In this document: positions 6,905 through 11,637 of the stretch, piece by piece
How the letters are laid out: each line of letters opens with the position of its first letter
Position numbering within the stretch: position 1 is the stretch's first letter
Assembly (NCBI RefSeq): GCF_003334255.1
Contig: NZ_QOWU01000013.1
Strand: one strand, 5' to 3'
From: Escherichia coli
GTDB lineage: Bacteria; Pseudomonadota; Gammaproteobacteria; Enterobacterales; Enterobacteriaceae
DNA: 64,000 nt
The notes under the pieces: model-generated
What the model was told of the DNA's origin: nothing
Databases searched by the model: none
The model's input: only the letters and a program-made list of their open reading frames with translations
Position numbers and translations under genes: made by a program

Positions 6905-7010
6905 AAAAGAGTATGAGGCGGCTTTTGCCGGATGCGTCTACGCCTTATCCGGCCTACGGGTAGATACGTCTCGTAGGCCTGATAAGCGCAGCGCATCAGG
7001 CGTAAAGCAT
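6905..7010. repeat. REP (repetitive extragenic palindromic) element pair between deoA and deoC
   Basis: GCCGGATGCG...CGCCTTATCCGGCCTACG and inverted copy GTAGGCCTGATAAGCGCAGCGCATCAGGC characteristic of E. coli REP. Confidence 0.7.
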
Positions 7011-7015
7011 CTTAC

Positions 7016-7795
7016 TTAGTAGCTGCTGGCGCTCTTACCGTCGCCGTGACCCAGCGCTTTCAGCAGGCTTGCCAGCAGGCTGGAAGCGCCAAAGCGGTAG
7101 TGACGCGCATCTGCCCAGTCAGCACCGAACAGTTCATCTGCAATGGCGAGATATTTCTGCGCATCTTCCGCAGTACGCACGCCGCCCGCCGGTTTGAAAC
7201 CAACGGTTTTTTCTACGCCCATATCACGGATCACTTCCATCATGATGCGCGCGCTTTCCGGCGTCGCGTTCACAGCCACTTTACCGGTAGAGGTTTTGAT
7301 GAAGTCCGCACCCGCTTTGATGGAGATTTCAGACGCTTTACGGATCAGCGCTTCGTCTTTCAGTTCGCCGGTTTCGATGATCACTTTCAGCAGTACATTC
7401 GCTGCCGCGCAAGCCTCTTTACAGGCTTTCACCAGGTCAAAACCAACCTGCTCGTTACCCGCCATCAGCGCGCGGTACGGGAACACAACGTCAACTTCAT
7501 CAGCACCGTAGGCGATTGCCGCACGGGTTTCTGCCAGCGCGATGTCGATGTCGTCGTTACCGTGTGGGAAGTTGGTTACCGTAGCGATACGGATTTCCGG
7601 GGTGCCCTGCTCTTTCAGAGTTTTGCGAGCAATCGGGATAAAGCGAGGATAGATACAGATAGCGGCGGTATTGCCGACCGGAGTTTTGGCCTGATGACAC
7701 AGGGCGATCACTTTCTCGTCGGTGTCGTCGTCATTCAGGGTGGTCAGGTCCATCAATTTCAGTGCACGCAGGCTGCTTGCTTTCAGATCAGTCAT
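7016..7795 (-). CDS. deoC: deoxyribose-phosphate aldolase
   Basis: Recalled DeoC begins [36 protein letters not shown] at ATG 7795 (259 aa); the 267-aa track ORF has an N-terminal extension. Confidence 0.95.
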
Positions 7796-7839
7796 TTCAT
7801 TCTCCTGGCTTGTCGCCAATAAAATTCACCTTGCGAGTT

Positions 7840-7855
7840 TGTTAGTATTCTAACA
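7840..7855. promoter_or_regulatory. DeoR operator O2 (deoP2), one mismatch to the palindrome
   Basis: TGTTAGTATTCTAACA versus the 16-bp DeoR palindrome TGTTAGAATTCTAACA; about 45 bp upstream of the deoC ATG. Confidence 0.7.
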
Positions 7856-7873
7856 TCTACTCCGCAACACACT

Positions 7874-7940
7874 TCGATACACATCACAATTAAGGAAATC
7901 TACTTACAAGTTTGCATCACTGTAATGCGATCTGGTTCAA
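7874..7940. promoter_or_regulatory. deoP2 CRP/CytR region (two CRP-like half-site pairs)
   Basis: TTCGATACACATCACA (reverse TGTGA-N6-TCGAA) near 7874..7889 and TGCGATCTGGTTCAAA near 7924..7939, about 50 bp apart as expected for CRP1/CRP2 flanking a CytR site. Confidence 0.5.
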
Positions 7941-8052
7941 ATAATTCACTTTCAAATGAATGCGTCAGTGGTGGCAAACGCATCAGGATCAAAGTGAACA
8001 TCACGAAACTTCTTACAATGGCGCATCACCTTCGGCATAAAAGGAAAAGAAG

Positions 8053-9603
8053 ATGCCCACTTCTCATGAAAATGCACTGCAACAACGTTGCCAGCAAATT
8101 GTCACCAGCCCAGTGCTTAGCCCGGAGCAGAAGCGCCATTTTCTGGCACTGGAAGCAGAAAACAATCTGCCTTACCCACAGCTTCCTGCCGAAGCCCGCC
8201 GCGCGCTGGATGAAGGTGTAATCTGCGATATGTTTGAAGGTCATGCGCCGTACAAACCGCGCTATGTCTTACCCGATTACGCCCGTTTTCTGGCGAACGG
8301 TTCCGAATGGCTGGAGCTGGAAGGCGCGAAAGATCTTGATGACGCACTCTCTCTGCTGACCATTCTTTACCACCACGTACCGTCGGTCACATCGATGCCG
8401 GTCTACCTGGGGCAACTGGATGCGTTGTTGCAACCGTATGTTAGAATTCTAACACAAGACGAGATCGATGTTCGAATAAAACGTTTCTGGCGTTACCTCG
8501 ACAGAACCCTGCCAGACGCCTTTATGCACGCCAATATCGGCCCGTCTGATTCGCCCATTACCCGCGCGATCTTACGTGCAGATGCAGAGTTGAAGCAGGT
8601 TTCACCGAACCTGACCTTTATCTACGATCCTGAAATCACCCCTGATGACCTGCTGCTGGAAGTGGCGAAGAACATCTGTGAATGTAGCAAACCGCACATC
8701 GCCAACGGTCCGGTGCATGATAAAATTTTCACAAAAGGGGGCTACGGGATTGTGAGCTGTTACAACTCACTGCCGCTGGCGGGTGGTGGCAGCACGCTGG
8801 TACGCCTTAACCTGAAAGCCATTGCCGAGCGCAGCGAATCGCTGGATGACTTCTTTACGCGCACTCTACCGCACTACTGCCAGCAGCAGATCGCCATCAT
8901 CGATGCGCGGTGTGAATTCCTCTATCAACAATCACACTTCTTTGAGAATAGCTTCCTGGTGAAAGAAGGGCTGATTAACCCTGAACGTTTTGTGCCAATG
9001 TTTGGCATGTATGGGCTGGCGGAAGCGGTTAACTTGCTGTGTGAAAAAGAAGGGATTGCCGCGCGCTACGGTAAAGAAGCCGCCGCAAATGAAGTAGGTT
9101 ATCGCATCAGCGCGCAACTGGCGGAGTTTGTCGCCAATACCCCCGTGAAATATGGCTGGCAAAAACGCGCCATGTTACACGCACAGTCGGGGATCAGTTC
9201 CGATATCGGCACCACGCCGGGCGCGCGTTTGCCGTATGGCGATGAGCCAGATCCGATCACCCATCTGCAAACTGTCGCCCCGCATCATGCTTATTATTAT
9301 TCCGGCATCAGCGACATTCTGACGCTCGACGAAACCATCAAACGTAACCCGCAGGCACTGGTACAGCTTTGCCTCGGTGCCTTTAAAGCCGGAATGCGTG
9401 AATTTACCGCCAATGTCAGCGGTAACGATCTGGTTCGCGTTACCGGTTATATGGTGCGTTTGTCGGATTTAGAAAAATATCGCGCCGAAGGTTCACGCAC
9501 CAACACCACCTGGCTGGGCGAAGAAGCCGCACGCAACACTCGTATTCTGGAACGCCAGCCGCGCGTGATAAGCCATGAACAGCAGATGCGCTTTAGTCAG
9601 TAA
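8053..9603 (+). CDS. yjjI: glycine-radical-enzyme-like protein YjjI (DUF3029)
   Basis: 516-aa ORF divergent from deoC; synteny and length; 29-nt overlap with yjjW. Confidence 0.85.
8439..8454. promoter_or_regulatory. DeoR operator O1 (deoP1), perfect palindrome
   Basis: Exact TGTTAGAATTCTAACA; 599 bp from O2, the known P1-P2 spacing; lies inside the yjjI reading frame. Confidence 0.75.
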
Positions 9604-10438
9604 GATTATCCCCTTCTCCTGCGTTGACGGGCCAGGCAGTCGTCTGGCTCTGTTTTTGCAGGGCTGCAATCTGCGCTGCAAAAACTGTCACAATCCGTGG
9701 ACGATGGGACGTTGCAATGACTGTGGGGAGTGCGTGCCACAGTGTCCGCATCAGGCGTTGCAGATTGTTGACGGCAAAGTGGTGTGGAACGCTGTGGTTT
9801 GCGAGCAGTGTGATACCTGCCTGAAGAGGTGTCCGCAACATGCCACGCCCATGGCGCAATCCATGAGCGTGGACGAAGTGCTTAGCCATGTCCGCAAAGC
9901 AGTGCTGTTTATCGAAGGGATAACGGTGAGTGGCGGTGAAGCCACGACCCAGCTGCCGTTTGTGGTGGCGCTGTTTACTGCTATCAAAAACGATCCGCAA
10001 CTGCGCCATCTCACCTGTCTGGTGGACAGTAACGGCATGTTGAGCGAAACCGGCTGGGAAAAATTGCTCCCGGTGTGCGACGGCGCAATGCTCGATCTCA
10101 AAGCGTGGGGGAGCGAATGTCATCAACAACTCACCGGACGCGATAATCAGCAGATTAAGCGCAGCATCTATTTGCTGGCAGAGCGCGGCAAGCTGGCGGA
10201 ACTGCGTTTGCTGGTGATCCCTGGCCAGGTGGATTATTTGCAACACATCGAAGAACTGGCGGCGTTTATCAAGGGACTCGGCGATGTTCCGGTACGCCTG
10301 AACGCGTTTCATGCCCACGGCGTGTATGGCGAGGCGCAAAGCTGGGCGAGCGCCACGCCGGAAGACGTTGAGCCGTTGGCTGATGCGTTAAAGGTGCGCG
10401 GGGTGAGCCGGTTGATATTTCCGGCGCTCTATTTGTGA
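9575..10438 (+). CDS. yjjW: glycyl-radical enzyme activating protein (radical SAM with extra ferredoxin-like Cys clusters)
   Basis: 287-aa ORF with CxxxCxxC-type motif ([11 protein letters not shown]) and CxxCxxCxxxC motifs. Confidence 0.85.
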
Positions 10439-10439
10439 C

Positions 10440-10860
10440 ATGCCGGATACGGCCTACGGTTCGGCACAGACTTGTAGGCCTGATAAGACGCGTCAAGCGT
10501 CGCATCAGGCATTGTGCGCCAACTGCCGGATGCGGCGCGAACGCCTTATCCGGCCTACGGTTCGGCACAAACCTGTAGGCATGATAAGACGCGACAAGCG
10601 TCGCATCAGGCATTATGCGCCGACTGCCGGATGCGGCGTGAACGCCTTATCCGGCCTACGGTTCGGCACAGACTTGTAGGCATGATAAGACGCGACAAGC
10701 GTCGCATCAGGCATTGTGCGCCAACTGCCGGATGCGGCGTGAACGCCTTATCCGGCCTACGGTTCGGCACAAACCTGTAGGCATGATAAGACGCGTTAAG
10801 CGTCGCATCAGGCATTGTGCGCCAACTGCCGGATGCGGCGTGAACGCCTTATCCGGCCTA
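10440..10860. repeat. BIME: tandem array of at least 4 REP-pair units, about 100-bp period
   Basis: Unit GCCGGATGCGGCGTGAACGCCTTATCCGGCCTACGGTTCGGCACA...GTAGGCATGATAAGACGCG..AAGCGTCGCATCAGGCA recurs around 10440, 10540, 10640, 10740 and 10840 with point differences. Confidence 0.85.
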
Positions 10861-11637
10861 CGGCACGTTAAACAACGTATACGTGTTATTAAGCAACGCT
10901 TGCGCAATCTCATCCGCCGGTTCCCGGCGCAACTCGCAAAGCACGGCAAACACACGGGCAGCCTGCTCCGGGCGGTTAGGCTGCCCCTGAAAACCGTTGA
11001 GCGGCATATCCGGCGCGTCGGTTTCCAGCAATAACGATGCCAGCGGTAATTTTGCGATGACATCGCGGGTTTTACTGGCGCGTGGATAGGTGATAGTACC
11101 GCCTACGCCAATTTTGTAGCCCAGCTGTACAAACCGTTCGGCCTGTTGCAGGCTGCCGGAAAAACCGTGAACCACGCCAGTGCGCGGTAAATCGTGGCGT
11201 TTAAGATGCATCGCCAGTTTGTCGTGCGTGCGCCGTGAATGCAGGATCACCGGCAGATCGTAGCGTTTCGCCAGTTTCAGTTGTTCGTCGAGTAACCACT
11301 GCTGCCTCTCAAATTGCGGATCGTCGCCAAAGAGATCCAGACCGATCTCCCCCACCGCCACCACCTTCGCCGGACGCCTTTCCAGCGCCTGCTGTAGCTG
11401 CTCAAGAGACACATCGCTATGTTTTTCCAACATACCAGGATGCAAGCCCAATGCGGCATACAGCGGTTGATAATTTTCCGCTAATGCCAACACACGGGCA
11501 AAATTTTCCGCCTCTGTTGCCGGAACAATGATCTTGCCTACGCCCGCTTGTGCCGCGCGTTGCAGGCTGGCCTCTTCATCGCCACTAAACGGCGGGAAAT
11601 CAAAATGGCAGTGGGTGTCGATAAAACGGCAAATCAA
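10858..11637 (-). CDS. yjjV: TatD-family metal-dependent DNase/hydrolase
   Basis: 259-aa ORF MICRFIDTHCHFDFPPFSGDEE... with TatD-type DTHCH motif. Confidence 0.85.
   Translation of the reverse strand: MICRFIDTHCHFDFPPFSGDEEASLQRAAQAGVGKIIVPATEAENFARVLALAENYQPLYAALGLHPGMLEKHSDVSLEQLQQALERRPAKVVAVGEIGLDLFGDDPQFERQQWLLDEQLKLAKRYDLPVILHSRRTHDKLAMHLKRHDLPRTGVVHGFSGSLQQAERFVQLGYKIGVGGTITYPRASKTRDVIAKLPLASLLLETDAPDMPLNGFQGQPNRPEQAARVFAVLCELRREPADEIAQALLNNTYTLFNVP

Follow-up and report, generated by a model that had tools for sequence, protein, structure and literature searches.

The yjjI-yjjW genes of Escherichia coli encode a predicted minimal glycyl radical enzyme and its activase in gene contexts that point to nucleosides

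We analysed a stretch of 64,000 nucleotides of the Escherichia coli contig NZ_QOWU01000013.1 (RefSeq assembly GCF_003334255.1; the whole stretch is called the window below), in which two overlapping genes, yjjI and yjjW, encode a predicted glycyl radical enzyme (GRE) and a radical S-adenosylmethionine (SAM) activase. The window is E. coli K-12-type chromosome, with positions 7800-10900 100% identical to MG1655, and both open reading frames (ORFs) are identical to the MG1655 RefSeq annotation of yjjI and yjjW. RefSeq names the products 'YjjI family glycine radical enzyme' and 'YjjW family glycine radical enzyme activase'. The identification of the pair is not new, as it is already named in RefSeq, Pfam and NCBIfam (TIGR04040/TIGR04041, PF11230), and since the pair has been catalogued its identification is ordinary; the value of the locus lies in the substrate question and in the operon evidence. 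The two genes and their predicted functional sites are located as follows:

8053..9603, + strand: yjjI, YjjI-family glycyl radical enzyme of 516 amino acids; ORF equal to the RefSeq annotation
8758..8760, + strand: codon of Cys236, predicted to carry the thiyl radical, in the motif (V/A)-S-C-Y-N; alignment, profile and model
9436..9450, + strand: codons R462-V-T-G465-Y466, matching the glycyl-radical fingerprint RVxG[FWY]; motif search and alignment
9575..9603, + strand: overlap of yjjI and yjjW, 29 nt; ORF coordinates
9575..10438, + strand: yjjW, YjjW-family radical-SAM activase of 287 amino acids; ORF, RefSeq, TIGR04041, Pfam Radical_SAM and Fer4 dicluster
9665..9688, + strand: CX3CX2C of YjjW (Cys31, Cys35 and Cys38), predicted SAM-binding [4Fe-4S] site; motif search
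9713..9832, + strand: two ferredoxin-type CX2CX2CX3C motifs of YjjW (residues 47-57 and 76-86), predicted auxiliary [4Fe-4S] clusters; motif search and Pfam

The locus was found in 5423 of the 5426 complete E. coli genomes. In comparisons with Salmonella, Citrobacter and Enterobacter the ratio of nonsynonymous to synonymous substitution rates (dN/dS) of yjjI was 0.04-0.06 and that of yjjW 0.08-0.13; dS was near saturation. The two genes are under strong purifying selection and are real genes, not chance ORFs, and protein has been detected by proteomics (PMC6561319).

YjjI scored 787.2 bits against the family model TIGR04040 (cut-off 498.3) and matched PF11230 with an E-value of 2.8e-220. The only other match in the Pfam scan was a non-significant one to NRDD (i-E-value 0.6), and no match was obtained to the Pfam models for the pyruvate formate-lyase (PFL)-like and Gly_radical domains (PF02901, PF01228; IPR004184), while faint or weak matches to the PFL-like and NRDD models were seen in some distant members of the family. 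Published GRE surveys used the set of PFL-domain proteins defined by InterPro IPR004184 (PMC11528403); YjjI lies outside this set and has therefore largely escaped systematic study. The GRE fingerprint described there, RVxG[FWY], is C-terminal and contains the radical glycine (PMC11528403). The initial annotation, which was made from the letters alone, had described YjjI as glycyl-radical-enzyme-like and proposed a check for such a motif near its C-terminus, and RVTGY was found at residues 462-466, 51 residues from the end of the protein. In an alignment of 24 family sequences sharing 29-90% identity only 15 columns were invariant, Cys236, Arg462 and Gly465 being among them, and Cys236 was the sole invariant cysteine of YjjI (its cysteines are residues 13, 58, 209, 211, 236, 276, 287, 330 and 440). 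Among representatives of clusters at 50% identity that cover the respective position, the residue aligned with Cys236 was Cys in 61 of 62 and the one aligned with Gly465 was Gly in 51 of 52.

A search of PDB sequences with YjjI alone returned chance matches only, and it took the family profile to bring up PFL and NrdD, the class III ribonucleotide reductase (RNR). In the profile comparison 'YGvvSCYN' of YjjI was aligned with 'YAIACCVS' of PFL, which places Ser235 opposite PFL Cys418 and Cys236 opposite PFL Cys419, and 'lvRvtGYlv' was aligned with 'tiRVSGYAV' around PFL Gly734. The alignment of YjjI with E. coli NrdD by hhalign had an E-value of 4.6e-5; NrdD, not PFL, is structurally nearest to YjjI. 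A confident AlphaFold2 model from the family alignment (predicted local distance difference score, pLDDT, 91.4; predicted template modelling score, pTM, 0.91) placed Cys236 at the tip of the hairpin E231-234/E238-241 and Gly465 at the tip of the hairpin E460-462/E467-469, and the ten-stranded alpha/beta barrel with two finger loops that marks membership of the superfamily was found in YjjI. Both the glycyl motif and the catalytic cysteine, whose absence would have spoken against the initial annotation, are thus present, and the alignments and the model identify YjjI as a genuine GRE with the full predicted glycyl-radical apparatus. Judged by sequence comparison, YjjI is a third, minimal GRE lineage beside the NrdD and PFL-domain branches, about 500 residues long and in essence a bare catalytic barrel.

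The YjjI family is small and also widespread: 1.84 billion representatives yielded 541 clusters at 50% identity, of which many are fragments, and at least 593 GTDB species representatives have a member. Members were also found in Bacillota, Actinomycetota, Ferrimonas and on one archaeal contig. On that contig (L091) a YjjI-family gene and a short activase (247-251 amino acids) occupy positions 7001-9364, the other genes of the contig being those of archaeal translation factors (eIF-1A, eIF-2 beta, NMD3, RIO1), and the family therefore reaches the Archaea. Gut metagenomes were rich in YjjI relatives, with single clusters at 90% identity holding hundreds to more than 1000 members.

YjjW scored 396.4 bits against TIGR04041 (cut-off 250.2) and 136.6 against the general subfamily model TIGR02494, which is under the cut-off of 174.35. 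No start is possible farther upstream of the yjjW ORF, and the conserved domain begins at residue 5. The predicted SAM-binding motif reads CNLRCKNC at residues 31-38 and is preceded by DGPGSR at residues 18-23. Dicluster models of Pfam (Fer4_9/Fer4_7) matched residues 46-90, and residues 44-95 matched polyferredoxins in PDB. The earlier description of YjjW as a radical-SAM activase with additional ferredoxin-like cysteine clusters was therefore borne out by the family score, by the CX3CX2C motif and by the two CX2CX2CX3C motifs, and by sequence YjjW has the make-up of a complete activase. The next-best named relatives of YjjW were the activases of hydroxyproline dehydratase, sulfopropanediol dehydratase, PFL and choline lyase, not NrdG, so that the pair shows a mixed affinity, with YjjI most like NrdD and YjjW like the PFL-class activases. 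The architecture had been likened to that of PflB/PflA. The analogy is loose, as YjjI is structurally nearest to NrdD and is without the Cys-Cys pair, and YjjW resembles activases of the PflC/CutD/HypD type, not PflA or NrdG.

The pairing of the two genes was observed far beyond E. coli. The activase gene directly followed yjjI in nearly all Enterobacterales loci whose contig reaches that far. In the other lineages it adjoined yjjI in 72 of 84 loci as detected by hidden Markov model and in 7 more as detected by tblastn (79/84 altogether), and most of the remaining loci stop at a contig edge. Some lineages encode a short YjjW-family activase of 238-251 amino acids without the ferredoxin insert (for example L082, L091, L126 and their relatives), and the auxiliary clusters are therefore not universal in the YjjW family. 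Three closely related loci (L118, L119 and L157, relatives of the locus L146 described below) had no activase within the available DNA. The overlap of the two genes reported earlier was confirmed at 29 nt (9575-9603). An overlap of 26-29 nt is retained, with few exceptions, in nearly all Enterobacterales loci in which both genes are intact, and in other phyla the two genes commonly overlap by 1-17 nt. No recognisable Shine-Dalgarno sequence for yjjW was seen in the upstream sequence at the overlap, and translation of yjjW may be coupled to that of yjjI through these 29 nt.

The gene neighbourhoods of distant family members were surveyed on metagenome contigs that were scanned with an alignment of distant YjjI members only; ORFs were called and neighbours clustered. 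Dereplication at 80% YjjI identity gave 35 non-enterobacterial lineages, 30 of which had at least 6 kb of flanking DNA. A scan of genome contigs was uninformative on distant contexts, since its best 80 loci were all from Enterobacterales. In 13 of the 35 lineages yjjI-yjjW lay in a same-strand, tightly spaced run with nucleoside genes, and such genes were found within 6 kb of the pair in 16 lineages. The linked genes encode a PnrA-type nucleoside ATP-binding cassette (ABC) transporter and udp, cdd, deoB, deoC, add, rih or rbsK products. The commonest order was udp, Bmp/PnrA-type binding protein, yjjI, yjjW, ABC ATPase, permease, permease, cdd, deoC, deoB, add, the intervals between genes being -11 to +122 nt. 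In several operons the radical pair thus stood between the transporter gene for the binding protein and that for the ATPase. Alternative orders were also observed, including ones in which rih and rbsK adjoin yjjI-yjjW. The neighbours exceeded the curated cut-offs of their families (score/cut-off: udp 331.6/280.3, cdd 146.7/74, deoC 247.9/117.3, deoB 559/256, add 259.6/216.6, ribokinase 330.6/299.7), and the binding protein of the operons matched Pfam Bmp with an E-value of 1.6e-76. YjjI identity among the nucleoside-associated lineages ranged from 39 to 78% and their gene order varied. At one metagenomic locus (L146, 7959-14914) udp, deoB and a gene for a CRP/FNR-family regulator stood between yjjI and the activase gene. 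The associated metagenomic lineages that carry a taxon name were two, from Lachnospiraceae and Peptococcaceae.

Other forms of the association were seen outside this type of operon. In a gammaproteobacterium (L176) a gene for a NupC/NupG concentrative nucleoside transporter (CNT) lies 70 nt upstream on the same strand (472 bits, cut-off 442). In the window deoC-deoA-deoB-deoD lies upstream of yjjI on the opposite strand, and this divergent adjacency of deoCABD was found across Enterobacteriaceae, Hafnia and Edwardsiella. A nucleoside hydrolase gene and one for a Bmp-type permease stood near yjjI at one of the distant loci examined early. The nucleoside contexts thus fall into three kinds, with two transporter families that are unrelated to each other and with two phyla represented; the link is strong, though not universal. 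An integrated E. coli network published in 2009 had placed YjjI in a module of 'nucleotide transport and deoxyribonucleoside degradation' (PMC2672614).

Regulatory genes were also seen at the distant loci: a LacI-family repressor resembling CcpA, RbsR, UriR and CytR directly upstream of yjjI in L126 (6753-7703), and a CRP/FNR-family protein within the nucleoside/yjjI operon of L165 (5930-6658). A search of the operons for an accessory ketoreductase or another recurring partner returned only LacI- and CRP-family regulators, an M20 deacylase and unrelated genes, and neighbours of the short-chain dehydrogenase/reductase or epimerase type were found in just two lineages. The first six to nine distant contexts had seemed unrelated and had suggested a stand-alone module, an idea that the larger dereplicated survey overturned. 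A database protein of 574 amino acids that is 100% identical to YjjI over 91% of the query joins PF11230 to the DeoC aldolase domain PF01791; it comes from a 2.9-kb contig and is probably an artefact of assembly or gene calling, because deoC is divergent from yjjI here.

The following regulatory features were located in the DNA between deoC and yjjI and in the first part of yjjI (those without a strand were not assigned to one):

7840-7855: DeoR palindrome with 1 mismatch, deoC-yjjI intergenic
7873-7888: site of CRP chromatin immunoprecipitation (ChIP) reported for enterotoxigenic E. coli (ETEC) and present in the window, intergenic
7979..7992: candidate FNR site CGCATCAGGATCAA, only its ATCAA half at consensus; phylogenetic footprint
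7986-7993: conserved core GGATCAAA; upstream alignment of 13 genera
8014..8019, + strand: candidate -10 hexamer TACAAT; conserved TACAAT/TACACT block at a fixed spacing from GGATCAA
8376-8391: second ETEC-reported CRP ChIP site, inside yjjI
8439..8454: perfect DeoR operator palindrome TGTTAGAATTCTAACA inside yjjI, codons 129-134 (V-R-I-L-T); pattern search
8718-8733: weaker DeoR candidate with 4 mismatches, inside yjjI

Published data place yjjI under the control of FNR. An FNR ChIP-sequencing (ChIP-seq) peak and an anaerobic sigma-70 peak lie in the yjjI/deoC intergenic region, yjjI was classed as directly FNR-activated, and the ratio of aerobic to anaerobic expression was 0.098 for yjjI and 0.27 for yjjW, the transcription start of yjjI being given as 'TSS not known' (PMC3688515). 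The gene is listed as FNR-activated also in PMC2634741, and anaerobic induction was reported in Yersinia intermedia (PMC3792023). The alignment of upstream sequences from 13 genera had two conserved islands, GGATCAAA and TACAAT; GGATCAA is retained in 11 of the 13 genera, although the surrounding intergenic DNA has diverged. The centre of the ATCAA site lies about 41 nt 5' of the start expected from TACAAT, which is class II geometry, and CGCATCAGGATCAA is a candidate for the FNR half-site of a class II-type yjjI promoter. The only intergenic match to the FNR site with at most two mismatches, at 7874-7887, was dropped, as it is the site found for CRP by ChIP-seq. A sigma-70 scan of the deoC-yjjI intergenic region found no consensus -35/-10 promoter, a result that fits an activator-dependent promoter and proves nothing. 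The Rfam scan found no cis-regulatory RNA within or 5' of yjjI-yjjW, its only matches being the repeats downstream of the pair. A role in 'nitrogen metabolism' has been proposed (PMC3228777); it rests on co-expression with FNR/Nar-regulated genes, and we take it as anaerobic co-regulation only.

The search for the DeoR operator pattern gave 2 matches where 0.18 were expected. The operators are spaced by 599 and 279 nt, and we take the three palindromes to be deoO1, deoO2 and deoOE of the classical deo literature. All genera with an adjacent deoCABD have the operator inside yjjI, at an unchanged codon position and with 0-2 mismatches, and it was absent in Proteus; since this operator is conserved at the nucleotide level, the yjjI coding sequence also carries regulatory DNA of the deo operon. 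The yjjI promoter accordingly lies within DNA that DeoR is thought to loop, which suggests co-control with nucleoside catabolism. The CRP site at 8376-8391 lies 48 nt from the internal DeoR operator, and transcription from the deo side would run antisense across the start of yjjI.

On the other side of the pair, yjjW is followed by a repeat block and then by yjjV and yjjU on the opposite strand. The block (10442-10858, between yjjW and yjjV) consists of four tandem units of 101 nt that are 93-95% identical, and each unit matches Rfam naRNA4 (RF02564) with 75-80 bits on the minus strand; naRNA4 is a nucleoid-associated noncoding RNA derived from repetitive extragenic palindromic (REP) elements.

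On balance we favour the view that yjjI-yjjW is an FNR-induced GRE with a dedicated activase that serves anaerobic nucleoside utilisation, and from gene context it is rather likely that YjjI acts on an imported nucleoside or on the pentose or pentose-phosphate part of one. Published data show that FNR turns the genes on anaerobically; in the mechanism that we propose, it would do so from a class II-type promoter (ATCAA half-site and TACAAT) that yields a single mRNA, with translation presumably coupled by the 29-nt overlap. From what is common to the families, YjjW would then reductively cleave SAM at its CX3CX2C cluster, its two ferredoxin-type clusters would relay electrons, and the resulting 5'-deoxyadenosyl radical would take a hydrogen from Gly465 of YjjI; the glycyl radical would oxidise Cys236 to a thiyl radical, which would abstract a hydrogen from the substrate. 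The chemistry on ribose is the least certain step and is a guess: 3-hydrogen abstraction as in RNR could be followed by loss of the 2-hydroxyl, and the outcome could be a redox-neutral dehydration, or a deoxygenation with formate or another donor, giving deoxyribose compounds that DeoC can split. We put forward only tentatively that such abstraction and 2-hydroxyl elimination on ribose feed the DeoB/DeoC route. Just as speculative is the proposal that YjjI is a stripped-down relative of anaerobic RNR working in catabolism, where it would attack the ribose of imported ribonucleosides, ribose-1-phosphate or ribose-5-phosphate; its product would then be, with similar doubt, a 2-deoxy or 2-deoxy-3-keto pentose compound that DeoB and DeoC convert to glyceraldehyde-3-phosphate and acetaldehyde.

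Several observations weigh against parts of this explanation. About half of the lineages with enough flanking DNA show no nearby nucleoside genes, and the neighbours there are unrelated housekeeping genes (AddA, RuvB/QueA, CarB) or variable. The deo operon of Proteus is not adjacent to yjjI, so that the enterobacterial adjacency could be inherited synteny, and some of the 13 lineages may share ancestry, because the associated lineages with a taxon name are both Bacillota. When the region upstream of yjjI was compared with the full FNR consensus (TTGAT-N4-ATCAA near -41.5), only the half-site CGCATCAGGATCAA was found. As to the chemistry, YjjI has no second conserved cysteine, and the bottom-face cysteine required for reduction by class III RNRs is deleted, which speaks against a reductive mechanism of the NrdD type; where the known GRE dehydratases have Glu at Cys+2, YjjI has Asn, which argues against a textbook eliminase. 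No experiment in the searchable literature shows a radical, a substrate or a phenotype for YjjI/YjjW. We found no paper that characterises YjjI or that ties a GRE to nucleoside catabolism, and the statement of the initial annotation that the reaction is uncharacterised agrees with this, since the searchable literature held no biochemical characterisation.

As an alternative, YjjI could be a real GRE acting on a common cytoplasmic metabolite unrelated to nucleosides, the neighbourhoods then reflecting shared anaerobic or carbon-source regulation, or hitch-hiking in a few related lineages. In its favour, the pair is a free-standing two-gene unit in about half of the lineages with enough flank, much like pflB-pflA or nrdD-nrdG, whose products act on central metabolites, and Proteus is without the deo adjacency. 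We nevertheless consider this explanation rather unlikely: the three nucleoside contexts (Bmp-type ABC transporter, NupC CNT transporter, deoCABD) come from different phyla and transporter families, gene orders vary, the pair is placed between binding-protein and ATPase genes in several operons, and L146 has udp and deoB between yjjI and the activase gene. Without functional coupling, a linkage that recurs in rearranged form is hard to account for, which is a rough judgement made with no formal null model. A distinctly smaller chance is given to action of YjjI on a released nucleobase, such as uracil or hypoxanthine, in an oxygen-independent base breakdown. The operons encode enzymes for base release (udp, rih) and for nucleoside deamination (cdd, add), yet no base-catabolic enzyme, a gap that YjjI would fill; one enzyme, however, would not finish base catabolism, and there are no recurring downstream base-degradation genes. 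The nearest structural relatives of YjjI, moreover, bind ribonucleotides and attack the ribose, and its E. coli neighbour deoCABD handles the sugar part.

The remaining explanations are much less probable. That YjjI is a second anaerobic ribonucleotide reductase, an NrdD paralogue reducing nucleoside triphosphates, is very improbable, given that it reaches no NrdD family model, has the position of NrdD Cys175 deleted, is without the C-terminal CxxC...CxxC zinc site and without an ATP-cone or extra N-terminal domain (516 versus 712 amino acids), and has an activase of the PFL class, not NrdG, in a bacterium that already has nrdDG. We give equally little credence to a PFL-like 2-keto-acid lyase. 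Weak profile matches to PFL around the Cys loop (E about 0.002), the resemblance of YjjW to PFL-class activases and the earlier designation of the Haemophilus influenzae orthologue HI0521 as a pflB homologue (quoted in PMC3228777) would fit such a lyase, but PFL chemistry requires Cys418-Cys419, where YjjI has Ser235-Cys236 with the Ser kept in most of the family, and there is neither a PFL-like or Gly_radical Pfam match nor a nearest fold of the PFL type. Least probable of all is an inactive evolutionary relic. The searchable literature reports no phenotype or activity, as a relic would predict; against this, the pair is core (5423/5426 genomes) with dN/dS of 0.04-0.13, the catalytic Gly and Cys and all the iron-sulfur cysteines are intact, transcription is regulated and the protein has been seen by proteomics (PMC6561319).

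YjjI is among the last GREs of E. coli K-12 without an assigned reaction. The preferred assignment to anaerobic nucleoside utilisation narrows the search for its substrate to a short testable list, nucleosides and pentose phosphates. Nucleosides are a significant source of carbon and energy in the gut, and if the link to them is true, current pathway maps of their anaerobic breakdown lack a radical step. If the catabolic reaction on ribose is true as well, it would be a new class of GRE reaction and would add to nucleoside fermentation, in E. coli and in gut bacteria, an anaerobic branch not recognised before, with ribose possibly an electron sink. It would also show how catabolism reused the RNR scaffold or how its use there came first.

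The comparison of YjjI with the characterised classes of GRE was made at the residues that define their reactions. In PFL and TdcE the catalytic cysteines Cys418-Cys419 are adjacent, whereas YjjI has Ser235-Cys236, and the position of Ser235 is Ser in 56 of the 62 representatives of clusters at 50% identity. YjjI is also about 240 residues shorter than PflB, in addition to its lack of a PFL-like or Gly_radical Pfam match, and PflA is without the ferredoxin insert carried by YjjW. GRE 1,2-eliminases have a general-base Glu two residues past the catalytic Cys (G-C-x-E). The eliminases and dehydratases (CutC, the glycerol and propanediol dehydratases, HypD, isethionate sulfite-lyase) accordingly have Glu at Cys+2, in contrast to Asn238 of YjjI (S-C-Y-N), a residue that is nearly invariant in the family, and a classical eliminase identity is not supported. 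These enzymes are longer than YjjI by about 250-300 residues and, with their activases of the PflC/CutD type, are typically encoded with microcompartment and aldehyde-processing genes, whereas yjjI is not.

Class III RNR needs for reduction a second active-site Cys on the first barrel strand (Cys175 of E. coli NrdD), and NrdD has a C-terminal four-cysteine zinc site beside the Gly loop. In the hhalign alignment 'PMFNCMLIDL' of NrdD stood opposite 'PRY--VLPDY' of YjjI, the Asn-Cys pair being deleted in YjjI. Neither a CxxC pair nor a C-terminal zinc motif was found in YjjI, whose last 186 residues contain only Cys440, and no NCBIfam model for NrdD was matched at E <= 0.001. E. coli NrdD has 712 amino acids compared with 516 in YjjI, a difference of about 200, and NrdG has 154 compared with 287 in YjjW, which is of the PFL class and carries two ferredoxin motifs. 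NrdD serves the synthesis of deoxyribonucleoside triphosphates (dNTPs), whereas the gene context of yjjI points to nucleoside catabolism and uptake. The E. coli GREs PflD and YbiW, which are orphans or only recently assigned (PDB 8yjo and 8yjn, deposited as 'probable dehydratase'), have 765-810 residues and belong to the PFL-like domain family, to which YjjI does not, and their Cys-loop motif differs from that of YjjI. As YjjI lacks the defining residues of each characterised reaction class, these comparisons argue for a chemistry that would differ in detail from that of every GRE member studied.

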